Of a DNA stretch of 20,000 bases, positions 2,490 to 19,295 are shown piece by piece (within the stretch, counting starts at the first letter, position 1; each line of letters opens with the position of its first letter). The DNA comes from an uncultured virus (IMG/VR IMGVR_UViG_3300043568_001227) (Duplodnaviria > Heunggongvirae > Uroviricota > Caudoviricetes). Both the position numbers and the translations under genes were made by a program. Where the stretch lies: positions 57,669 to 77,668 of IMG/VR virus record IMGVR_UViG_3300043568_001227. One strand, written 5' to 3'. Below the pieces are notes generated by a model that ran no database searches, had not been told where the DNA came from, and worked only from the letters and a program-made list of their open reading frames with translations.

Positions 2490-3365
2490 TTAAAGTTTAG
2501 TCAATACCATATCTAAATCTGTATCTGAAGGTATTGTTGGTTGTTTAACTTTTGTCTTAGTATTTGTCTTAGTATTAGACGATTCTTTACCACAAGAATA
2601 ACTGGCCATAGTTCCGTCGACCAATTTTTTTCTACCATTCCCGTAATAAACCACCCCATCAATTATGTAAGCAATACTACCGTCACTCAATTTTGATGAT
2701 TTCGCTTTTGGGTTACTTGGAATACAAGGAAATTTTTCAAATCCCTTTACGACACTTGATTCCTTTTGTGCCGCCAATTTTTTACCAAGGTCAACACTGT
2801 TTTCATATGCGTCTAATAATGGTAAAAAAACATATTGTTTCCATTCACCCTCAGAATCGATGTCCCCATCAATTGCTGCGAATAAACTTTCACCATGTCT
2901 TGTATTATATATGTTTGACATCGCACATAAATCAGGAATTGTTGTGATTTTTTGTAGATTACTTTTAATTGCATCCTCATCAGTACCCATACCATCAACC
3001 GCTGCGTTAATACCATCGGCAATACCATTTAATGTGGCTCTACTCAGTGTTGATTTACCAACTTCTTTTAAATTTCCACAAGCTTGTAAAATTTTTTCGG
3101 CACCTTTGTAAGAATAATTCCCACCATTAATTAATCCGTTAATTAATCCAATCGCTCCACCGATAATTGCTCCTGGAACTAAACCAACGGCTCCACCAAT
3201 TGCAGCACCTGTTGCCATTGACGCCATTACACCATCTTCGGCTAACTCATTTTCAGATGACATCATAGTGTCGTCTTCTTTAAGATATTGTTTTTTAGTT
3301 GCTTCTTTATGAAGATTTAGAATTCTTTTAGATTCTTCTTCATTTAAAAAATATAATTTTTTCAT
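2490..3365 (-). CDS. glycine-zipper plus annexin-like repeat protein (291 aa), putative virion/ejection protein
   Basis: Leader MKKLYFLNEEESKRILNLH...YLKE; hydrophobic GxxxG zipper at aa 50-81 (ATGAAIGGAVGLVPGAIIGGAIGLINGLING); annexin-like segment at aa ~113-184 (IADGINAAVDGMGTDEDAI...YNTRHGESLFAAIDGD). Confidence 0.7.
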   Translation of the reverse strand: MKKLYFLNEEESKRILNLHKEATKKQYLKEDDTMMSSENELAEDGVMASMATGAAIGGAVGLVPGAIIGGAIGLINGLINGGNYSYKGAEKILQACGNLKEVGKSTLSRATLNGIADGINAAVDGMGTDEDAIKSNLQKITTIPDLCAMSNIYNTRHGESLFAAIDGDIDSEGEWKQYVFLPLLDAYENSVDLGKKLAAQKESSVVKGFEKFPCIPSNPKAKSSKLSDGSIAYIIDGVVYYGNGRKKLVDGTMASYSCGKESSNTKTNTKTKVKQPTIPSDTDLDMVLTKL

Positions 3366-3412
3366 ACCTATTTCTGTTTAATATATAAATATCTGTTTTT
3401 TCGAAAAAAAAG

Positions 3413-3442
3413 TTGTGGATTCAGTATATTTACTTATCTTTG
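3413..3442 (+). promoter_or_regulatory. Bacteroidota housekeeping-sigma promoter (-33 TTG / -7 TAnnTTTG)
   Basis: TTG at 3413-3415, a 19-nt spacer, then TATCTTTG at 3435-3442. The 16-mer TTTACTTAyCTTTGTA (3429-3444) recurs at 19904-19919. Confidence 0.7.
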
Positions 3443-3447
3443 TAATG

Positions 3448-3559
3448 TGGTTGAGGGAAACGATTCAGATACAACTAAATCAATCATAATGGTTAGGACG
3501 AAAACCTCCTAATTTGAACGGGATAGAAACGATTTAGATACTAAGTCCCGTTCTTTTTT
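3448..3559 (+). ncRNA. putative structured small RNA (~110 nt, three hairpins, two with near-identical loops)
   Basis: Lies downstream of a host-type promoter with no ORF. Hairpins: UGGUUG/CAACUA (3448-3477), UUAGGA/UCCUAA (3493-3512) and GAACGGGA-UAG/CUA-ag-UCCCGUUC (3516-3553) followed by U6. Direct repeat GAAACGATTyAGATAC at 3457-3472 and 3526-3541. Confidence 0.6.
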
Positions 3560-3971
3560 AAATCCAAATAACAAATTGGTCTTTACCAACTCTAAAAGAT
3601 AAATCATACGATTCTCTAAAAACGGTAATTATAAGTAATTTCCAATAGGAGCCACCACCATGTTTTGGTACTATGACCATAGCGATTTCTTTTTCTTTTG
3701 ATTTAATAACAAATGCTACATCATCTTTAATCTCTCCTGTGGTAATTCCTTCCGCAATTTCTCGTCTACAACTCTCAATTATATATTTTAATTCACCGTT
3801 AGATATTTCTCTATCATTATAATCAGGAATATCAGTTCTGTTTTTTCTTTCATATGCGTGGGTAGTTCTATCAATCTCAAAACCAAAGGCAATTTCTATT
3901 TTGGCCATAATATGCCCAATTTTCTTTTCTAATAATAAATGTTCTTTGATTAATCTACGTAATTCGCTCAT
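3558..3971 (-). CDS. putative RNase-toxin-like (DUF4258/RelE-like BECR fold) protein with a short leader (137 aa from ATG 3971)
   Basis: TTHAYERKNR...REIS and C-terminal LLIITVF fit the HA..R...R.I / IITV pattern. Likely start is MSELRRLIKEHLLLE at 3971, because the track's 3995 start runs through the terminator/promoter region. Confidence 0.5.
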   Translation of the reverse strand: MSELRRLIKEHLLLEKKIGHIMAKIEIAFGFEIDRTTHAYERKNRTDIPDYNDREISNGELKYIIESCRREIAEGITTGEIKDDVAFVIKSKEKEIAMVIVPKHGGGSYWKLLIITVFRESYDLSFRVGKDQFVIWI

Positions 3972-3993
3972 ATAATATAAATACTTGTAAAAC

Positions 3994-4022
3994 AAAAAAA
4001 GGGACGATTACTCGTCCCTTTT
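3994..4022 (-). terminator. intrinsic terminator after the major capsid gene (possibly bidirectional)
   Basis: Minus strand reads GGGACGA-GTAA-TCGTCCC then T7; a T4 run flanks the other side. Confidence 0.9.
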
Positions 4023-4042
4023 CATATTATTTAAGATGTTGA

Positions 4043-5914
4043 TTATCTCAATTCTCTTAAGTCGAATGTTCTAACTCCATCAACTGTGATACGTCCGTAG
4101 AAACGGTTGTTAACCATTTTCTTAGCGTAACGTGTCATAATACCTTTAATAGGTGTGAAGTTGAATGGGTTATACATTGTAGGTGTTAATTGTAATGGTA
4201 CATACGGTGCGTAGATGTAACCTGTGTCTAACAATGACGTTCCTTTATGTCCTACTAACACTGTGTTAGCTGGGAAGTAAGGGTCACGGTAAACTTGGTA
4301 ACGACCTGCTAATGTTCCAACTCTTTCAATACCCATGTTGTATTGGTCTTGCTCTGGAGACGCGTTAGATACGTGGAAGTACTCTAAATCATCAAAAATA
4401 GCCGAAATCTCAGAAGAAACTACAATCCAGTTAGCTCCACCTCTTAATGTAGATTTGTGGATTTGTGCTGACAATTGGTTAATTGCAGTAATTAATGTTT
4501 GATTCCAATCTTTTTGAGTATAAGATGTAGTTTGAGAAATTCTTCTCCATCCGTTGTAATCCCAACGTAAGTTCCATGCCGCACCTTTACGTAAATCTCT
4601 TAAGATTTCACGGTCGATTTCAGCAGCAACTTGTTCAGATAATAAAGCCGTTAATTCAGCTTCAGCATCGATGTTGTGGAATGCAGCAACGTCTTGAGCT
4701 AACTCAGGAGACCATTGTGCTCTTAATTTTCTTTCTGTAACAGATACAGTAACTGAATCTAAGTCGAAAGAAACCTCACCGATTTTATCTTCAAATTCTA
4801 ATTGTTCGTAACGTCTGAACGCTGCGTAGAATGATGTTCCTGAAGACGCTTCAGTAATAGTAGTACCTGTGTAACCATCTAAAGATGTAGAATCACAATC
4901 AGCACATACTGGACAAGATAAATCAACTTCTAAGTAGATACATCCGTTAGCGTCACATACGGTTTTAAACGAACCACCGTTACCTGCAGGGTTATTACCT
5001 GATGCCGCTGGCCAATTAGTTTGAACTGTATTACCGTAAGAAACGATTCCTTTACCATATTGTTGAGTAACAACTCTGAACAATAATGCTCCTGTTGAAA
5101 CTGTACATGGAGAACCTTCAGCAACTGTTAAACCAGCACCTGTAAAGATAACTAAATCAGATAAGAAAGATTCTGTATCCATTTCATTACCGTCAGGTCC
5201 GATTAATTTACCAGCTCCTGTATCAGCGAAACCACACATTTTAACAATAACTTTTCTTGTGTTACCTGAAGCAATTTCAATACCATTTGCTGGTGCACCA
5301 TCATTAATAGTTGCATCAACTAATGACCCATTTGACCATGCTTGAATCAACGTACTTGCAGTGATTGCTGACCAACGACCTTTTGAATAATCGAATAAAC
5401 CTGCTGGGTCTAAACCTGGTTCAGTTCCTTCGTAGAATAAGTCATAAAGGTTTTTAGCAACCGCTCCAGTTCCTGTGTAACCTGCATTTTGAGATGTTGG
5501 TCCGTTTGGTGCTCCTAGTGGTGCGTAGTGGTCTCCTGAAGATACATCACTCCATGGAGTGTTAGTACCACCTGAATACCCTTGAATTTTAGGTACAAAG
5601 AAGAATAATTTACCGATTGGTAAATTCATCGCTTGTACTGATACGATGTCATTCGCTAATAATTTAGAGAATACACGTCTTACGATAGGGAATACAACAG
5701 TTTCAAATGAACCTGAAGACCCGTCAGACGTTGCTTCGTTAATTAAGAAAGACGCTTGGTTCTCATATAACTGAGCTACGTTTTCTTTTAGGTGACCTTT
5801 AAGGCCTTCTAGGAATCCTAATTTATCCCATTTGTTGATAGTATCTTCTTTGATAACTTTAAGGTGTTTTAACCCGATGTTACCAACAAGACCTGATTCT
5901 AATAATGCTCCCAT
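4043..5914 (-). CDS. major capsid protein, T4 gp23-like, with a large insertion (623 aa)
   Basis: FPIVRRVFSKLLANDIVSVQAMNLPIGKLFF, RKLRAQWSPELAQDVAAFHNIDAEAELTALLSEQVAAEIDREI, YIYAPYVPL and FTPIKGIMTRYA are gp23-family hallmarks. Confidence 0.97.
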   Translation of the reverse strand: MGALLESGLVGNIGLKHLKVIKEDTINKWDKLGFLEGLKGHLKENVAQLYENQASFLINEATSDGSSGSFETVVFPIVRRVFSKLLANDIVSVQAMNLPIGKLFFFVPKIQGYSGGTNTPWSDVSSGDHYAPLGAPNGPTSQNAGYTGTGAVAKNLYDLFYEGTEPGLDPAGLFDYSKGRWSAITASTLIQAWSNGSLVDATINDGAPANGIEIASGNTRKVIVKMCGFADTGAGKLIGPDGNEMDTESFLSDLVIFTGAGLTVAEGSPCTVSTGALLFRVVTQQYGKGIVSYGNTVQTNWPAASGNNPAGNGGSFKTVCDANGCIYLEVDLSCPVCADCDSTSLDGYTGTTITEASSGTSFYAAFRRYEQLEFEDKIGEVSFDLDSVTVSVTERKLRAQWSPELAQDVAAFHNIDAEAELTALLSEQVAAEIDREILRDLRKGAAWNLRWDYNGWRRISQTTSYTQKDWNQTLITAINQLSAQIHKSTLRGGANWIVVSSEISAIFDDLEYFHVSNASPEQDQYNMGIERVGTLAGRYQVYRDPYFPANTVLVGHKGTSLLDTGYIYAPYVPLQLTPTMYNPFNFTPIKGIMTRYAKKMVNNRFYGRITVDGVRTFDLRELR

Positions 5915-7561: not shown

Positions 7562-7588
7562 AAAAAAGGGGACAAATGTCCCCCTTTT
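7562..7588 (-). terminator. intrinsic terminator after the protease/DUF4494-like genes
   Basis: Minus strand reads GGGGACA-TT-TGTCCCC then T6 (plus strand aaaaaaggggacaaatgtccccctttt). Confidence 0.85.
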
Positions 7589-7835: not shown

Positions 7836-8564
7836 TTAATATCCTAAATAATCGTTCAATTTTTTCATTAAGTCAAGTGATTTATTTCCACTTTCCCCAA
7901 CTTGTCTTTCGACTTTCATTTTTTTCTCCTCTTCCAAGTTCTCCTCAAAGTTAAATCTATCTTCAGGATTTTGGAATAAATACGCTCCTGGTGTTGATGG
8001 TGAGGATACTAAGTCAAAACAGATTAATTCAAAATCTTCTTGGACCTCATTCTGTTCACCAACTTTTTTAAGGGAACCAACTCCTCTTGAAGAGATTCCT
8101 AACGTAACTCCTTGTCTTAGGTAATTAGCGGCTAAATCTCCTTTAGTTGATACAATACCTCTTTCGTGGAATCCTGGTGATGTAAGTAATTGTATCTTAC
8201 CCATTAGTACAGGACCTTCCCACCATATTTCAGTTATTGCATGAGAAACTCTATCTAAATCAATTAATGACGATTCAGGGTGATTTAACTCTGAAAGAGC
8301 GGTGCCCTTTTCTATCATTTTTTTATAGTTTTCTGATTCTCTTTTTAAAATACGTTCAGGGTATATTCTACCATTTCTGTTTGGGGTATTATATTTCTGT
8401 AATACCGCATAAAATTCAAATGGTTTAGAGTGGTCTAACATATTACCTTTAGATTCTTTAATAACCTTAGCATTATGTGTATCTGTTGGTGATACGTAAC
8501 CCGCATCGTATTCTATTAATATACCTTTACCTATTTCAGTTGGTTGTAAAATTCTTAAATTCAT
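7836..8564 (-). CDS. prohead core protease, T4 gp21-like (242 aa from ATG 8564)
   Basis: NRNGRIYP, ELNHP (catalytic His), GISSRGVGS (catalytic Ser) and FDLVSSPSTPGAY. ATG 8564 (MNLRIL) follows the TATTTAT motif at 8580-8586. Confidence 0.95.
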   Translation of the reverse strand: MNLRILQPTEIGKGILIEYDAGYVSPTDTHNAKVIKESKGNMLDHSKPFEFYAVLQKYNTPNRNGRIYPERILKRESENYKKMIEKGTALSELNHPESSLIDLDRVSHAITEIWWEGPVLMGKIQLLTSPGFHERGIVSTKGDLAANYLRQGVTLGISSRGVGSLKKVGEQNEVQEDFELICFDLVSSPSTPGAYLFQNPEDRFNFEENLEEEKKMKVERQVGESGNKSLDLMKKLNDYLGY

Positions 8565-8586
8565 CTCAAATGTTTTATTATAAATA

Positions 8587-9057
8587 TTAAACATTCTCTA
8601 ATTGTAGCGTATCATCGTTTGTTTTGATTTTTTTAGTTAGATAAAAGTTGAAGTAATCGTTACCGATAAAGTTTTCGTAAAAAATTCTATTAGTAATATC
8701 TTTAAGTGAATCTTTAATTTCTTTTGATTTAAAGTCATGTCCTTCATGATTTAAAAAGAAATTAATCTCTAAGTTCATAAAAGATTTTTTACCTTGATTT
8801 AATCCGCTGGACCTTAAATCTAAATCTACTATAAATTTATCATCAAATAACTCTTTATCTAAGGATTCGTAGACCGAATGTTTTATGGCTCTGCTCATAT
8901 TGAGAACTGTCCTTGTCCAATTTTCGCACTCTGTAGTTGGTTCTACCCATGTTTGGATGTTAAGATAGAGTGACTTTAAATTCATCGAATCAACTGTTCC
9001 ATATACTACCTTGGCAGTGTTGAATCCGTGAATGTGTGAGGTTTTACCCTTTTTCAT
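8587..9057 (-). CDS. hypothetical protein (156 aa)
   Basis: ORF track; good length and composition; a possible host-type promoter lies upstream (TTTG-20 nt-TATTTTTA, minus strand ~9091-9122). Confidence 0.8.
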   Translation of the reverse strand: MKKGKTSHIHGFNTAKVVYGTVDSMNLKSLYLNIQTWVEPTTECENWTRTVLNMSRAIKHSVYESLDKELFDDKFIVDLDLRSSGLNQGKKSFMNLEINFFLNHEGHDFKSKEIKDSLKDITNRIFYENFIGNDYFNFYLTKKIKTNDDTLQLENV

Positions 9058-10075: not shown

Positions 10076-11920
10076 TCAGTCTTTTAGAAGTTTGTTTAAC
10101 TCTTTTTCCATTTCACCTAAAGAATTTCTTGCTTTAGACAAATCAATAAATGAATCCGAATCTGTTAAGTTATCACTTTCTAATAAAATTGTTAAGTTAT
10201 CACGTTTATATGATTCAGGTGTTATCTCCGCTTCACCTCCTGGTTCAGGTCCTGGTGGTGGTGGTATTGGAGCCCCTCCACCCATATCTTCAGGTGCTCC
10301 TAATCCTCCACCACTTGATTCACCTCCTGGAGGTGGTGGGGTTGCTCCCACAGTTTGAGTTGCGCCTGATTTAACACCATATAGTTTATCAATATTGTCA
10401 AATACACCTGTATGACTGATAATAGTCGCCGTGTTAGTTAATTCAGCACCAACCGCTTTTTCAATACGTTGTTGTTGTAAATCTAATTTAATTTCTTCAT
10501 CAGAGAATCCTAATACGTGTTTCTTAGCCCAAGTTACAGAAACTGGTGCAATACCTTCGATTGCCGTTACTGCATCTTTATATAATAAAACTTTTTCTTT
10601 CCAAACATCAATTTTTAATAAATCGGCCTGTGTTGATGGGTTAGTTAAACCTAATGTAAAGTTTGACAATTCATCTTCAAACCCTAATAAGAATAAATGG
10701 ATGATAGCTATTTTATTCATTTCCGCAATCATAGATTTTTGAATTCTATTAATTGTTCTTGCGAAACGGATATCTTGTAATGATAAATTCTTACCATCAC
10801 CAACAACTTCCTCAAACCCTAAAAACGCTTTAGGAACTCTAAGGGCGGTTAATAATTTCTTTTGGATGTATTCAATATCGGCAATCTCCGCTAAATTCTG
10901 TGCACCTGGTAGAGTCTCAATTGGAGATGCTTGAGCAGGGTCACGTACAGGAATAAAATAATCTTGGTCAACCGCCATTTGATTAAATCTCATATCAACA
11001 TTACCTGATTGACTATCAACAACCTGACTACGTTTGAATTTGTTCGCAACACGTTGTACATACGACTCAACATCTTTATCGTCCATATTACCTACAAAGA
11101 CTTTAAAGACACGTCTTTCAGGGGCTCTTGAGGTACGATAGATTAACATTGCGTCTTCCGATAATAATAATTGTTTCCAAATACGTCTCGCTTTTTCTAA
11201 CATAGAAGTACCATAAGGTAATTTTCTATCATCACCTAATAATCTAAAGTGGGCAATTTCCCATGAATTAAATTCCATGTCTTTAGCCTTCCACTTAAAT
11301 CTTAAACCTTTATTTTCTGCGGGTTCCTCGACGTTTGCCGATTTTGCCGCCATACCTCTTTCAAGTCGTTCAATCTCAATATTTGGTAATTGCATACATC
11401 CAACAATACCTTTTTCAGCATCTAATTTTAAATAAACAAAATTATCACCGTATTTTGCGGTATTTCTTGTCCACATCGGTAAATTAGTATTGATATCTAA
11501 AACATTATTAAACAAGTCAATTAAGATTGATTTAATACGTTTAGATTCTGAATATATTTGTAACATGTAACCATTTTGGTCAACAGTTGTTGATTCTTCA
11601 CCGTAGATATCTAAAGCCGCCGAAATTTCAGGAGTATATTCCATTGATTCATAATCATAGAATGATGCTAATCTTGTTGGTTCATAATAAACCGCTTGAG
11701 TGTATAAGTTACTCTCAATTTTAGTCCATTGATTGGCTAAGTAATACGTTTGTTGAGCTTGTAATTTTTCTTTATCGTATTCCTGTTTTGATGTCGTTTT
11801 TAATAACTCAGTCTTGTCTAACTTATATGTTGGATAATCTTGATTTAACAGGGCGTTAGGACCGAAGGCTTGAGATAGCCTCTGCCAAACTGTAAATTGA
11901 TTATTTTGATTGTTTTCCAT
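10076..11920 (-). CDS. portal protein, T4 gp20-like (614 aa)
   Basis: YGTSMLEKARRIWKQLLLSEDAMLIYRTSRAPERRVFKVFVGNM, DYFIPVR, IETLPGAQNL and DIEYIQKKLLTALRVPKAFL; Pro/Gly-rich C-terminal tail. Confidence 0.96.
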   Translation of the reverse strand: MENNQNNQFTVWQRLSQAFGPNALLNQDYPTYKLDKTELLKTTSKQEYDKEKLQAQQTYYLANQWTKIESNLYTQAVYYEPTRLASFYDYESMEYTPEISAALDIYGEESTTVDQNGYMLQIYSESKRIKSILIDLFNNVLDINTNLPMWTRNTAKYGDNFVYLKLDAEKGIVGCMQLPNIEIERLERGMAAKSANVEEPAENKGLRFKWKAKDMEFNSWEIAHFRLLGDDRKLPYGTSMLEKARRIWKQLLLSEDAMLIYRTSRAPERRVFKVFVGNMDDKDVESYVQRVANKFKRSQVVDSQSGNVDMRFNQMAVDQDYFIPVRDPAQASPIETLPGAQNLAEIADIEYIQKKLLTALRVPKAFLGFEEVVGDGKNLSLQDIRFARTINRIQKSMIAEMNKIAIIHLFLLGFEDELSNFTLGLTNPSTQADLLKIDVWKEKVLLYKDAVTAIEGIAPVSVTWAKKHVLGFSDEEIKLDLQQQRIEKAVGAELTNTATIISHTGVFDNIDKLYGVKSGATQTVGATPPPPGGESSGGGLGAPEDMGGGAPIPPPPGPEPGGEAEITPESYKRDNLTILLESDNLTDSDSFIDLSKARNSLGEMEKELNKLLKD

Positions 11921-12134: not shown

Positions 12135-13904
12135 TTATCTAATACCAAATAACCAACCGTACTTTTGATAATCTTCTTTAGACATGTTCTGATTATTATA
12201 TTGACCTATTCTTTCTGACATGTGTGGTATAACAGGATTAAATTCTAAATTTTTCGCAACTTGGTCATTATTGCTAACCGCCCAAGACTCAATCATTGCC
12301 TTAGTATGTTCGACAACTTTAGTTAAATTACTAAATGACGACTCAGCAACATAAGTTGCCATGGCGACTGACATAATTAAGTCATCATGATGTCCTTTTT
12401 GGTGGTCAGGACGACCATTAATGTAAATGAAAGTATTCATTTCATTGAAAAGTCTTGAACTGTAGATTTTAAACCCATGTCTCATCCCTTCTTCAAATGA
12501 AGCAATAATTTGAACTCTTTTATTATTAAAATTAATTCCTGGTATTTTTTCATGGGACTTAGAATCGTATTTCCACTTATTAGCGGTGTCAACACCATCA
12601 ACATATAAGTCTTTATAACCCATTTCCTGTAATTTTCTTGAGGTGGAAACTCCCATTCCACCTGTGATATCAATCACAATAAAACATGAATACATGTTGG
12701 CCCATTTATAACAAATTTCCGCCATAGTATCAGGAGGTAATTTACCAACATATTCCGCAACTTGTTCTCTTTCGTCAAAATCAATGATTTGGAACGAACT
12801 AAAGTCTTCACTATCCCCACGAGAAACGTCGACCCCCATAATGTATTTATGTCCAACGACAGGTTCTTTCCAAATCCACAAAGCATTACCCATCATTTTA
12901 TTCTTGGGTTCTACAATAGAATTTTCTCTAATTGTTTGTAACATTTTAGAATCAAATACGTTATCACCTGAACCTAAGAAGTTACATTCCAACTCCTGAG
13001 ATACTTTACGTTTATCATATTTTAATTTCTTAACCATCGCTTCAAACCAAGACGAGCAAGGTTTATAACCTTGATTCATTAATTCTCTCAGTTCTTTATA
13101 ATCTCTTTCGTGTGCGGGTATATGGGACCAACTGAGTATATCTTTTTCACTGTATTCTTCTTTATTTAAAAGATAGTGAATCATATCGTCGGTTTTAACC
13201 AAATATAAATCTTTTGTGTAACGAGGGTCACGGTACCAATACATTTCAGAAATCCTGAAGTCATTCATATTCCTTAACGCTTGGTCGTATATCTCATAAT
13301 AAATTCGGTCATAACCATTTGGTGTTGAGACTACGATTACTTTACCACCTGTAGATAAGGACGCCATACAAGCTGCCCAAAAATCACTGTCGGCCTCGAT
13401 AAATGCCGCCTCATCAAATACAAGTATTGTTGGTGTAAATCCACGTAAGGCATCTTTAGATGTTGCAACGGCTTTAACCTCACTACCGTTATTTAGTTTA
13501 TAATGTTTTTGTGAGTTTTTTTCTACCGCAAAATCAATACCGACCCAACTTGGCCATTGACTGATAAAAGCTCTAATCTTGTTAGCCATCTCTAATGACG
13601 TATCAAGTTTATTGGCTATTATAAGGATTTTTTCGGGTTTGTTTTTCTTAGCAAAAGAAAGTTTCATCGAAGCCCAAGCTGCGGTAACCGTAGATACACC
13701 CGCTTGTCGATATTTTAAGGCAATATTTTCGTTGTAATTTTCGTAATCCTCAAGTAATGATACTTGGTCAGGAAATAATTCTAACGGTACGTATTTAGAA
13801 ACTGTGTTATCGTATGTTTGTAGATATGTTTTTAACGCATATTGTACGTCCTTATGACATTTTACGTACTCTATTAGTACCTGTTCTCTGGTTAAATTTG
13901 ACAT
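12135..13904 (-). CDS. terL: terminase large subunit, T4 gp17-like (589 aa)
   Basis: LFPDQ (adenine motif), KYRQAGVST (Walker A), ILVFDEAAF (Walker B), VSTPNG (motif III), QELECNF, MGVDVSRG and HDDLIMS (RNase H-like nuclease). Confidence 0.96.
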   Translation of the reverse strand: MSNLTREQVLIEYVKCHKDVQYALKTYLQTYDNTVSKYVPLELFPDQVSLLEDYENYNENIALKYRQAGVSTVTAAWASMKLSFAKKNKPEKILIIANKLDTSLEMANKIRAFISQWPSWVGIDFAVEKNSQKHYKLNNGSEVKAVATSKDALRGFTPTILVFDEAAFIEADSDFWAACMASLSTGGKVIVVSTPNGYDRIYYEIYDQALRNMNDFRISEMYWYRDPRYTKDLYLVKTDDMIHYLLNKEEYSEKDILSWSHIPAHERDYKELRELMNQGYKPCSSWFEAMVKKLKYDKRKVSQELECNFLGSGDNVFDSKMLQTIRENSIVEPKNKMMGNALWIWKEPVVGHKYIMGVDVSRGDSEDFSSFQIIDFDEREQVAEYVGKLPPDTMAEICYKWANMYSCFIVIDITGGMGVSTSRKLQEMGYKDLYVDGVDTANKWKYDSKSHEKIPGINFNNKRVQIIASFEEGMRHGFKIYSSRLFNEMNTFIYINGRPDHQKGHHDDLIMSVAMATYVAESSFSNLTKVVEHTKAMIESWAVSNNDQVAKNLEFNPVIPHMSERIGQYNNQNMSKEDYQKYGWLFGIR

Positions 13905-17999: not shown

Positions 18000-19295
18000 T
18001 TATTTAAATCCTAATGTCGATAATAATGGTTCTAACCAATTACTAACTTCTTTATTACTTCCTTCGATACCTTTGGTGATAACAGTCTCGTCGTAATCAG
18101 TTTCGTCATTATTACTATCATCTTTATAATCAGTACCCAATTTATTAGTGAAAATTTTTCCAGAATTTTTTAACAATTCTCTAATATGTTCCCCATAAGG
18201 TAATCCTATGTGCACATGAGTCATTGTGTCATGTCCAACCCATTCAGAAACAACTCCAATGTAATCACCAACTTTAATTGTATCTCCGTTCTTTAATTTT
18301 ACATTTTTAACGTGAGTGTAAAAAATATCAGGAAATCCGTCAGACCCTTTAATCGATACTTGTGTTCCATAAATTTTTCCAGAATTTTTACCAGTATCTC
18401 TTATTTTAGTTACAGTACCGTTAGTATATGAATTAACAACTGTATTCGGAGGGGCAAAAATATCCCAAGCATTATCTGATTGCCAATTACCTAATTTTCT
18501 ACTACCATGATTTTTTGGACCGTTCTCTAAATCAGTTTTAAAATTACCACCAATAGTTGTTGTAGATTCTTTCAAGGATAATTCTTTATCAATACGATTA
18601 TCTTGATATTGATATAATTTTTCAATATATCCATTTCTTCTCAATACTTTAAATACTAAGTTTTCATCAGAATATTCTCCACCTTCTTCTAATCCGCAAG
18701 TTCTATATTTTTTAAGTTTTTTCTTATACTTGTCGATAATTTTTTTAGTGTCATCAATAGATTCATCCTTAACACTTTCAATAACACCGTCAATAATGTC
18801 CATCCATTGTTTTGATTTGTTTTTAATCAGTTCAAGGTCAATTTTAACATTTTCTTTTTTAGGTTCATTTTCCCATGTATCAAATAAAACAGAATACACT
18901 CCACTACTAAAGTGAGACTCAATTTCATTTTGAACATATAACTCAACTTCATATCCGTAGATGGTGATATCGTGTTTGTCGTTATATATGGTTTTTTTTA
19001 ATTGGAATAATTCTTCGTATAAAGGTAATTCAGTTTTTGAGAATTGATTAAAGTCAACTAAGATGTGTAAATCAATGTCTGAAAATTTTGACCAGTTATA
19101 ATTGGCTAATGAACCTGTCATTATAACGTCTGACACAAAAATATCAACGTTTAAAAATTCTATAAACTCATAAGCAATCTCAAGTAGACGTGACCTAACT
19201 TTAGGTGACATCTTTTCCATTGACCCATCCCAAATCTTAGGATTTAATTCGTCTTGTACGTGAAAACTAGTTAATATACTTTTTAAATCACTCAT
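18000..19295 (-). CDS. fusion of a pol-beta-superfamily nucleotidyltransferase (N-term) and an M23-like peptidase (C-term), 431 aa
   Basis: IMTGSLANYNWSKFSDIDLHILV (GS..DxD) plus YEVELYV; C-terminal WDIFAPPNTVV...GTV...FYTHVKNVKLKNGDTIKVGDYIG...THVHIG (M23 fold with HxH). Confidence 0.8.
   Translation of the reverse strand: MSDLKSILTSFHVQDELNPKIWDGSMEKMSPKVRSRLLEIAYEFIEFLNVDIFVSDVIMTGSLANYNWSKFSDIDLHILVDFNQFSKTELPLYEELFQLKKTIYNDKHDITIYGYEVELYVQNEIESHFSSGVYSVLFDTWENEPKKENVKIDLELIKNKSKQWMDIIDGVIESVKDESIDDTKKIIDKYKKKLKKYRTCGLEEGGEYSDENLVFKVLRRNGYIEKLYQYQDNRIDKELSLKESTTTIGGNFKTDLENGPKNHGSRKLGNWQSDNAWDIFAPPNTVVNSYTNGTVTKIRDTGKNSGKIYGTQVSIKGSDGFPDIFYTHVKNVKLKNGDTIKVGDYIGVVSEWVGHDTMTHVHIGLPYGEHIRELLKNSGKIFTNKLGTDYKDDSNNDETDYDETVITKGIEGSNKEVSNWLEPLLSTLGFK

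Follow-up and report, generated by a model that had tools for sequence, protein, structure and literature searches.

A predicted small RNA with twin loop motifs from a family in uncultured freshwater Bacteroidota phages

The window is the whole 20-kb stretch of DNA analyzed here. It is the last part of a 77.7-kb viral record with a CheckV completeness of 26%. Judged by comparison with its relatives, one locus in the window (positions 3413 to 3559) is a plus-strand gene for a structured RNA, which starts at a promoter of host type and ends at an intrinsic terminator. The RNA belongs to a previously undescribed family of small RNAs from uncultured freshwater Bacteroidota phages. The hairpin that defines the family appears as a portable module with an arbitrary stem sequence and a fixed loop. 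We tentatively read the window RNA as a trans-acting two-site RNA that carries two copies of a putative protein-binding loop, a reading to which we give somewhat less than even weight. What we infer is that the RNA is transcribed in vivo, is bound by a protein, acts in trans, and has some effect.

Results

Genomic setting

A T4-type head module is encoded in the window, entirely on the minus strand (Table 1). The RNA locus lies inside this late structural (capsid) module and is antisense to it. It occupies the intergenic gap between the 291-aa gene and the 145-aa gene. The gap spans 3366 to 3557 (192 bp) and contains no ORF of at least 40 aa, so the ORF-free gap described in the first-pass annotation was reproduced. 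A 14-codon ORF from the ATG at 3445 was rejected, since its start codon is not conserved and, in other members, the variable base of the motif would create a stop in the same frame. Downstream of the RNA, the plus strand of the window has no gene for 16 kb.

Among cultured phages, Flavobacterium phage immuto comes closest in its capsid protein, with 40.8% amino acid identity. The loop motif is absent from immuto and from the uncultured record LR756508. A blastn search with 1.7 kb around the locus returned no match among 50,697 phage records. ARAGORN found 0 tRNA or tmRNA genes in the 77.7-kb record and likewise 0 in the window. The GOLLD model (RF02032) had no match in the window or in the 26%-complete 77.7-kb record.

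Table 1. Features of the predicted RNA gene and of the genes around it, in window coordinates
Feature	Positions	Strand	Remarks
Promoter, -33-like TTG	3413-3415	+	19 nt before the -7 box; TTG or TTTG likewise placed in most homologues with upstream flank
-7 box TATCTTTG	3435-3442	+	Presumed Bacteroidota TAnnTTTG type
Hairpin 1	stem 3446-3454/3480-3488	+	Loop of 25 nt; MFE fold
Loop motif copy 1 GAAACGATTCAGATAC	3457-3472	+	Conserved core ~3455-3474
Hairpin 2	stem 3491-3498/3507-3514	+	Loop of 8 nt; MFE fold; missing in two-hairpin relatives
Hairpin 3, terminator stem	stem 3516-3524/3545-3553	+	Loop of 20 nt; MFE fold
Loop motif copy 2 GAAACGATTTAGATAC	3526-3541	+	In the loop of hairpin 3
U6 run, intrinsic terminator	3554-3559	+	RNA 3' end expected here
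291-aa gene, function unassigned	2490-3365	-	Start 80 nt from the expected 5' end of the RNA, opposite strand
145-aa gene	3558-3995	-	Convergent with the RNA; synteny limited to one clade
Gp23-type capsid protein	4043-5914	-	
Prohead protease	7836-8594	-	
T4-type portal	10076-11920	-	
Large terminase	12135-13904	-	

Anatomy of the RNA gene

The first-pass annotation had proposed a plus-strand Bacteroidota-type promoter (TTG-19-TATCTTTG), three stems followed by U6, and a 16-nt repeat with 1 mismatch in the loops of hairpins 1 and 3, whose stems are unlike. Each of these was recovered. The promoter is in place and its -7 box is conserved in homologues. The plus-strand fold of 3446 to 3553 gives the three stems and is followed by T6. 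The repeat sits in the two loops, and its copies are identical except at the Y position. The -7 box at 3435 to 3442 is of the Bacteroidota type, with the consensus TAnnTTTG. The RNA would be expected to start near 3444 to 3446 and to form an independently transcribed product of about 112 nt.

With 3 mismatches or fewer, there are 4 matches to the 16-mer against 0.55 expected, and none of 200 shuffles reached 4. With 2 mismatches or fewer, the 77.7-kb record has no copy of the 16-mer beyond these two, and its reverse strand has none. The plus-strand folding energy has a z-score of -1.79, and 7 of 200 shuffles fold equally well. Folding is slightly better on the minus strand (z = -3.20) when only the window sequence is considered. 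Because the single-sequence folding energy is unremarkable, the case rests on conservation and covariation in the relatives.

Homologues and loop conservation

Scanning viral contigs for the exact motif gave 115 loci. Sixty-nine of these align to the RNA locus over at least 150 nt and represent 28 distinct sequences with 69 to 100% identity (alignment A1). In A1 the stems vary, whereas little or no change is seen in the -7 box, the two loop motifs, and the T-run. T36, A37, and T40 to T42 of the -7 box never vary, and 27 of the 28 sequences have G43. The T-run is found in all rows, and a G+C-rich terminator stem followed by T6 to T9 is conserved. The distance from the end of the -7 box to the first motif is exactly 14 nt in members with two or three hairpins. 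When the sequences were folded individually, 27 of 28 gave the same three hairpins; the MFE fold of the other (L032) has no hairpin 1.

The loci were obtained by exact motif match, and diverged members are invisible to such a scan. At least one loop per locus is therefore invariant by construction, and the second loop alone is an unbiased observation. About 49 of the 115 viral loci have no flanking stem or promoter. The same is true of 19 of 98 loci from the metagenome scan described below. These loci were treated as chance matches, and their agreement with chance expectation is a rough estimate. One-mismatch motifs in the phages G001 and G004 (L142, L143, and L144) were also set aside. They are within coding sequence, and one starts a 118-aa ORF.

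Covariation and strand

A covariance model was built from 24 homologues with the structure proposed here. It gave 54 matches among 100 sources at an E value of ≤1. The 32 best model matches (29 distinct) form alignment A4, which was fitted to the proposed structure. In A4, 93.8% of 694 cells pair, compared with 80.9 ± 0.8% in shuffles (0 of 500 reached the observed value). Compensatory changes on both sides occur in 18 of 25 pairs, compared with 11.7 ± 1.6 in shuffles (again 0 of 500). Controls with slid partners were only 31 to 52% paired. Hairpin 1 has 97.8% of its cells paired, and 3 of its 8 modeled pairs change on both sides. Hairpin 2 has 95.0% paired, with both-side changes in 6 of 8 pairs. 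The terminator stem, hairpin 3, has 89.2% paired, with both-side changes in 9 of 9 pairs.

RNAalifold recovered only hairpin 2 and one spurious helix from the raw MAFFT alignment A1. It missed the others because the 3' arms of hairpins 1 and 3 are misaligned between subgroups. Per-sequence folds and the covariance-model alignment were used after that.

The stem cells contain 77 G-U or U-G combinations and 18 A-C or C-A combinations. Such a surplus of G-U is consistent with plus-strand pairing. The promoter and the terminator T-run share this polarity. In relatives, the strand that carries the motif in its sense orientation is also the strand of the downstream tRNAs and GOLLD.

These results bear out part of the first-pass annotation. 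A structured plus-strand RNA is favored by the covariation in all three stems (18 of 25 pairs) and by the G-U excess. The loops are near-invariant on covarying, non-identical stems, as had been proposed for conserved loops on different stems. The suggested comparison with the orthologous region of related phages yielded 28 homologues, with compensatory changes in the 18 of 25 pairs. A DNA operator or iteron, which the annotation had named as what would refute it, is disfavored by the compensatory stem changes and the G-U excess.

Variants of the hairpin unit

The viral and metagenome collections contain 87 distinct hairpin units on 72 distinct stem pairs, all with the same loop core. The core is AACGAUU-N-AGAUAC(A)A, in which N is C in 49 units, U in 36, and A in 2. 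The loop is 20 to 26 nt long, and its near-invariant sequence is RAACGAUUNAGAUACAA (17 nt). The two collections overlap, so their loci are not independent. The metagenome scan was made with a 19-mer and returned 98 loci. Hairpin-embedded motifs are present in 79 of these; 43 have one motif in the available DNA, and 36 have two.

Each unit is directly behind its own promoter. It may contain one, two, or two plus one hairpins, and tandem arrangements also occur. Two-hairpin RNAs lack hairpin 2 (L027, L043/L007, and L034). Single units are about 45 to 50 nt long and consist of a promoter, a stem with the same loop, and often a T-run (L004/L068/L081, L025, L042, L059, L051, L097, and L101, for example). 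L207 contains tandem single units. L206 and L229 contain a composite of about 230 nt, made of two modules that each combine a hairpin-2-like element with a motif hairpin. An invariant 17-nt loop that is displayed once or twice on arbitrary stems is the signature of a recognition site.

Association with tRNA arrays, GOLLD, and boxA

The three-hairpin form is syntenic. The order is capsid gene, 145-aa gene, RNA (on the opposite strand), and 291-aa gene. The single units are found elsewhere. Among 23 viral loci scanned, single units lie upstream of tRNA arrays and on the same strand in L004, L068, and L081 (10 tRNAs each), L025 (6 tRNAs), L042 (8 tRNAs), and L059 (3 tRNAs). In the metagenome collection, tRNAs were found at 7 of the 43 single-motif loci, and in 7 of 7 cases they are downstream on the same strand. 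No tRNAs were found at the 36 two-motif loci.

GOLLD (RF02032, 310 to 330 bits) is downstream of single units on the same strand in L051, L141, G033, L193, L200, L204, and L207. G001 and G004 also encode GOLLD, elsewhere in the genome. A cryo-EM preprint on GOLLD links it to tRNA islands (bioRxiv 10.1101/2024.12.08.627333).

The phage G005 (195 kb) contains four motif copies. These are the three-hairpin RNA and two units in which AAGTTCTTTGA comes directly after a motif hairpin. The second unit continues into GOLLD and forms the GOLLD leader. The motif hairpin in G005 is directly 5' of GTTCTTTGA. In 8 of 8 Bacteroidota rrn operons sampled, GTTCTTTGA is found 80 to 212 nt before the 16S gene and again in the spacer downstream of it. 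The leader and the spacer of rrn operons are the classical boxA positions. We infer that GTTCTTTGA is an rrn-type boxA. The GOLLD unit of L051, L101, and L207 starts from a promoter of its own and has a plain hairpin and this same boxA; the motif unit is just upstream as a separate small gene. The boxA sequence TTCTTTGA is absent after either hairpin in the window RNA and in the other two-motif members.

The neighboring 145-aa protein

The 145-aa gene is the immediate neighbor of the RNA in ten of the related loci searched. Eight aligned homologues of the protein have invariant His, Arg, Tyr, and Glu residues. The protein has no sequence match in Pfam, PHROG, or PDB. Its AF2 model has a pLDDT of 82. 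Among solved structures, its fold comes closest mostly to RelE, HigB, ParE, and YoeB toxins and to T4 RegB, and the matches are weak (best Foldseek E value, 0.034). VIA-align gave Z-scores of 4.3 to 4.9 over 74 to 91 residues, which is below the level at which the tool is trusted (<5). As a weak lead from this model, the protein may be a RelE/RegB-like endoribonuclease. The 385-kb, 95%-complete phage G001 carries the hairpin, and a homologue of the protein was not detected in it.

Known families, host counterparts, and pairing targets

Rfam 15 gave 0 matches at gathering scores across the whole window. At an E value of ≤10, the region from 3350 to 3620 gave four chance rows with 13.6 to 17.6 bits against cutoffs of 35 to 56. 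The best row from a CRISPR-DR family for the locus had an E value of 8. The motif strings are absent from the papers covered by a full-text literature search. Literature searches on GOLLD, phage sRNAs, and boxA, mostly at the level of abstracts, gave no description of the loop hairpin. The initial statement that the RNA belongs to no recognized family thus stands, with no match in Rfam 15, no tRNA by ARAGORN, and no trace of the motif in the literature searched.

The 19-mer was compared with 185,579 prokaryote genomes on both strands. It gave 8 matches, and none is in a hairpin, behind a promoter, or in a repeat array. These were rejected as host counterparts. They look like chance and are in unstructured, probably coding sequence. 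Because the 8 matches have no stem or promoter, the loop is not an exact copy of a host RNA or repeat, and it has no perfectly complementary host target in this collection. A search of phage and host genomes for the 16-mer or its complement had been suggested initially. The phage record has two sense copies; the prokaryote genomes yielded neither a hairpin counterpart nor a perfect complement.

The loop was also compared with rRNA (six 16S/ITS stretches and three downstream stretches, where 23S is expected). The longest Watson-Crick match was 6 to 8 nt. Shuffled loops gave a mean longest match of 6.7 to 7.5 nt against rRNA operons, and up to 10 nt. The best local alignment in an rrn operon is with the 16S 790-loop region; it was rejected as chance, because 61 to 88 of 300 shuffles, a number that varies with the loop variant, reach its score. 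Matches to the phage's own 77 kb (the 26%-complete record) did not exceed 10 nt in the conserved part, which is the chance level. Matches to four GOLLD transcripts were 7 to 8 nt with G-U allowed, which is a chance length.

Expression

For expression, 24 RNA runs were available as contigs with small shares, and four freshwater metatranscriptomes were mapped. The RNA region had only low cover, with bin depths of about 1.5 to 1.9 (X2 and X3). One 151-nt metatranscriptome contig with a depth of 2 covers the RNA region and continues into the neighboring gene. Strong cover was confined to the capsid gene of relatives.

Discussion

Proposed mechanism

The 17-nt loop would be a sequence-specific recognition site, most likely for a protein. 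The recognizing protein would more likely be encoded by the phage than by the host. The two-loop RNA would titrate, sequester, or scaffold the bound factor in trans. A protein partner is favored because the base in the middle of the motif is free, no RNA complement was detectable, and no host counterpart was found. A phage-encoded partner is the more likely one because the prokaryote genomes searched do not contain the loop sequence in this form. Action in trans is suggested by the strong, conserved terminator and by the empty plus strand downstream. The variable base in the middle of the motif is also compatible with two short pairing seeds of 9 and 8 nt.

Against action in trans, the hairpin of relatives begins longer units. 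It is part of a GOLLD leader with boxA in one phage and lies ahead of tRNA arrays in others. Since the hairpin is the first element of longer units, a cis role fits those units at least as well as a trans role.

Alternative explanations

In a cis role, the hairpin would be a promoter-proximal attenuator or a nut/put-like element, and a factor bound to the loop would set the choice between stopping and read-through at the U-run. Read-through would enter the tRNA arrays or GOLLD in relatives, and it would run antisense into the late capsid operon in the window. The short RNA would then be the "off" product. The first hairpin is always within a few nucleotides of the expected start (13 to 17 nt from the -7 box to the motif in single units), and the motif hairpin is itself the terminator in many single units, as motif 2 is in the terminator loop of the window. 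Single units are upstream of tRNA arrays on the same strand in the seven metagenome loci with tRNAs and in the six viral loci, as they are for GOLLD in the seven loci listed above, and the hairpin of G005 is fused to an rrn-type boxA. We nevertheless consider this role rather unlikely for the window RNA. BoxA is absent from it and from the other two-motif members, and no plus-strand gene follows it. The tRNA and GOLLD units that lie downstream are served by promoters of their own, the terminators are both strong and conserved, and no alternative (antiterminator) fold is evident. The loop could instead act by base pairing or as a kissing loop with a host or phage mRNA, a tRNA, or a GOLLD loop, and the two loops would then be two seeds. 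Seed regions usually take the form of long single-stranded loops on stable stems, the motif is genomically linked to tRNA and GOLLD loci, and in G005 it is covalently joined to the GOLLD transcript. This is quite unlikely in our view, given that the complement of the 19-mer is absent from the 185,579 genomes and that the free central base splits the motif. The matches to rRNA, to the 77 kb available from the phage itself (26% of its genome), and to GOLLD are no longer than those of shuffled loops or than chance length.

Pairing with the neighboring protein is very improbable. Here the RNA would be a substrate, inhibitor, or antitoxin-like partner of the 145-aa, possibly RelE/RegB-like, protein. 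The gene adjoins the RNA in the ten related loci, the invariant His, Arg, Tyr, and Glu residues are present, and the AF2 model (pLDDT of 82) is nearest mostly to RelE/HigB/ParE/YoeB toxins and T4 RegB. The fold matches are weak (Z of <5), however, and there is no sequence match in Pfam or PDB. The gene is also on the strand opposite the RNA, and it is not near L027, L043, L007, or any single-unit locus. G001 (385 kb, 95% complete) has the hairpin and no detectable homologue of the protein. A purely anti-defense or antitoxin reading, moreover, does not predict the tRNA-array and GOLLD context of the relatives. We can hardly credit the view that there is no plus-strand RNA gene at all and that the locus consists of regulator-bound DNA repeats (an operator or iteron) or of minus-strand hairpins for the processing or stability of late mRNA. 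In its favor, the direct repeats are 67 to 71 bp apart in a gap between two late genes, a late transcript probably crosses the gap, and in the window it is the minus strand that folds with the better z-score. Against it, all three stems show compensatory changes, which speak against a site in duplex DNA, and the 77:18 ratio of G-U over A-C is in the wrong direction for the minus strand. The T-run is conserved, as is the promoter box with its fixed spacing, and in every one of its unrelated contexts the hairpin has the orientation of the promoter and of the RNA genes downstream. A two-site RNA that acts in trans through a loop-bound protein remains the reading that we prefer, with the reserve stated above.

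A further reading would join the free RNAs to the longer units. The loop hairpin would be a portable "address tag" of phage noncoding RNA islands, and its 17-nt loop would be recognized by a phage factor or by the GOLLD assembly. The free one- and two-loop RNAs and the GOLLD of G005 would be brought to the common machinery for handling phage tRNAs and GOLLD, or would regulate it. We regard this reading as improbable.

Comparison with known systems

To our knowledge, few phage-encoded small RNAs have been characterized outside enterobacterial phages. The window RNA resembles the sponge sRNAs CsrB and RsmZ in having a short recognition sequence repeated in loops on unrelated stems. It differs in that the repeat is 17 nt rather than GGA and is present in one or two copies rather than many. 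GGA is not found in every loop: loop 2 of the window has AGAAACG, and the base before the core is A in 24 of the 87 units. As far as we know, Bacteroidota have no CsrA and no classical RNA chaperones.

The family shares with lambda nut sites (boxA plus boxB) and rrn leader sites a promoter that is closely followed by a hairpin whose loop is specific. The likeness is strongest in G005, in which the hairpin is followed by an rrn-type boxA and then by a long untranslated RNA. The window RNA, in contrast, has no boxA, ends at its own terminator (stem and U6), and has no plus-strand gene after it. The lambda boxB loop is much smaller than 20 nt, and the loop here, with at least 20 nt, is far larger. 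The guanidine-II (mini-ykkC) riboswitch also has two covarying, unlike stems with identical loops and a variable linker. Its loops are kissing tetraloops. The loops here are 20 to 26 nt and not self-complementary, and single-hairpin members occur. The window RNA also has no downstream regulated gene and no Rfam match.

GOLLD and ROOL are phage noncoding RNAs, and relatives of the window RNA adjoin tRNA arrays and GOLLD. The RNA here is small (45 to 115 nt) and simple, however, and it has neither sequence nor structure in common with GOLLD. T4 encodes further noncoding RNAs in its tRNA island, the stable RNAs C and D. The window copy differs from noncoding RNAs of tRNA islands in being in a capsid module.

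The type III antitoxin RNA ToxI is similar in having a repeated RNA motif beside a possible endoribonuclease gene in a phage-related setting. Here, only 16 to 19 nt are repeated, the stems differ, and there are no tandem whole units. The 145-aa gene is on the opposite strand, and its protein is absent from the genomes of other members. In contrast to a phi29-type packaging RNA, the two loops are identical in sense and are not mutually complementary. RNA anti-CRISPRs, which are repeat or guide mimics (see, for example, the preprint 10.64898/2026.06.03.729762), are likewise small, structured, phage-encoded RNAs that could serve as decoys. The loop here has no counterpart in the 185,579 prokaryote genomes, so it is not an exact copy of a repeat or tracrRNA.

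Implications

The RNA family is a tractable entry point. It offers an RNA of 45 to 115 nt with a 17-nt site, strong covariation, its own promoter and terminator, and an invariant loop of unusual length that recurs as a module. The interest comes mainly from the tie of the module to tRNA and GOLLD islands. We know of no function assigned to GOLLD since its discovery. The rrn-type boxA leader on GOLLD units predicts that these units would use Nus-factor antitermination in these phages. If the address-tag reading were true, the window RNA would be the first defined handle on the role of GOLLD-type RNAs in infection.

Capsid gene and neighboring features of the window

The capsid gene is adjoined by a gene for a 145-aa protein. 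The structure model of this protein was confident. The closest solved folds to the model were RNase toxins of the RelE/HigB/ParE type and T4 RegB, each with a weak score. Its invariant residues are His46, Arg50, Tyr59, Glu68, and Arg127. Two palindromes in the window, one 3' of the capsid gene and one 3' of the gene for a 499-aa protein, are rich in G+C, carry a T-run on each strand, and look like bidirectional terminators. A 431-aa protein combines a nucleotidyltransferase N-terminal part (NTP_transf_2/Pol-beta type) with an M23 peptidase domain.

In the capsid gene, conserved stretches were covered by contigs from lake and freshwater metatranscriptomes (X1, X2, X3, and X5); the summed depth was high, and the contigs carried numerous variant letters. 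Relatives of the phage are therefore present in these RNA libraries. Separately, a promoter-pattern scan retrieved GTTGTTGTTGTCGTTG-type tandem repeats in record G000, each with an embedded TAAATTTG. These repeats are probably a repetitive coding stretch.

Coordinates of features in the window and in related loci
Feature	Location	Strand
145-aa protein gene	window 3558-3995	minus
Palindrome 3' of capsid gene	window 3996-4023	
Capsid gene	window 4043-5914	
Palindrome 3' of 499-aa gene	window 7563-7588	
431-aa protein	window 18000-19295	minus
GOLLD unit with GTTCTTTGA leader	L141 1000-2260 (L141 from G005:C1:106500-110500)	minus
Two units upstream of GOLLD	L141 2010-2400	minus
Composite RNA	L206 40-300	minus
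Glu/Gln-tRNA synthetase gene	L145 3878-5509	
Tandem repeats	G000:C1 ~33440-33520 (outside window)	

Larger relatives and tRNA genes

Loci L206 and L229 contain a ~230-nt composite RNA, which is a larger relative of the window's small RNA. It has two modules 110 nt apart, each a hairpin-2-like stem plus a motif hairpin (a stem displaying the conserved loop), and a 12-bp long-range helix encloses both.

Four loci (L004, L068, L081, and L168) carry arrays of 8 to 10 tRNAs, in which sets for Lys, His, Phe, and Trp recur. The arrays start ~300 nt 3' of a single motif hairpin. The 385-kb phage G001 encodes a full-length class I Glu/Gln-tRNA synthetase directly 3' of two tRNA-Gln genes.

GOLLD leaders and boxA

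In Bacteroidota phages (L141, L051, L207, and L101), units of the non-coding RNA GOLLD start with a host-type promoter (TAnnTTTG), a short hairpin, and then GTTCTTTGA. Upstream of GOLLD, L141 has two more promoter-led, apparently non-coding units. Unit A is a ~200-nt stretch preceded by the first motif hairpin and boxA; unit B is ~100 nt, closed by the long-range helix TTTCAGA/TCTGAAA. Neither had an Rfam match.

The same GTTCTTTGA lies 80 to 212 nt 5' of 16S in all eight Bacteroidota rrn operons examined (L148-L155, eight genomes), with a second copy 347 to 448 nt past the 16S end in 8/8. From its position in these operons, it is taken as a phylum-wide boxA form. The GOLLD leader copies are identical to this leader and spacer boxA, which suggests that Nus-type antitermination complexes make GOLLD in these phages.
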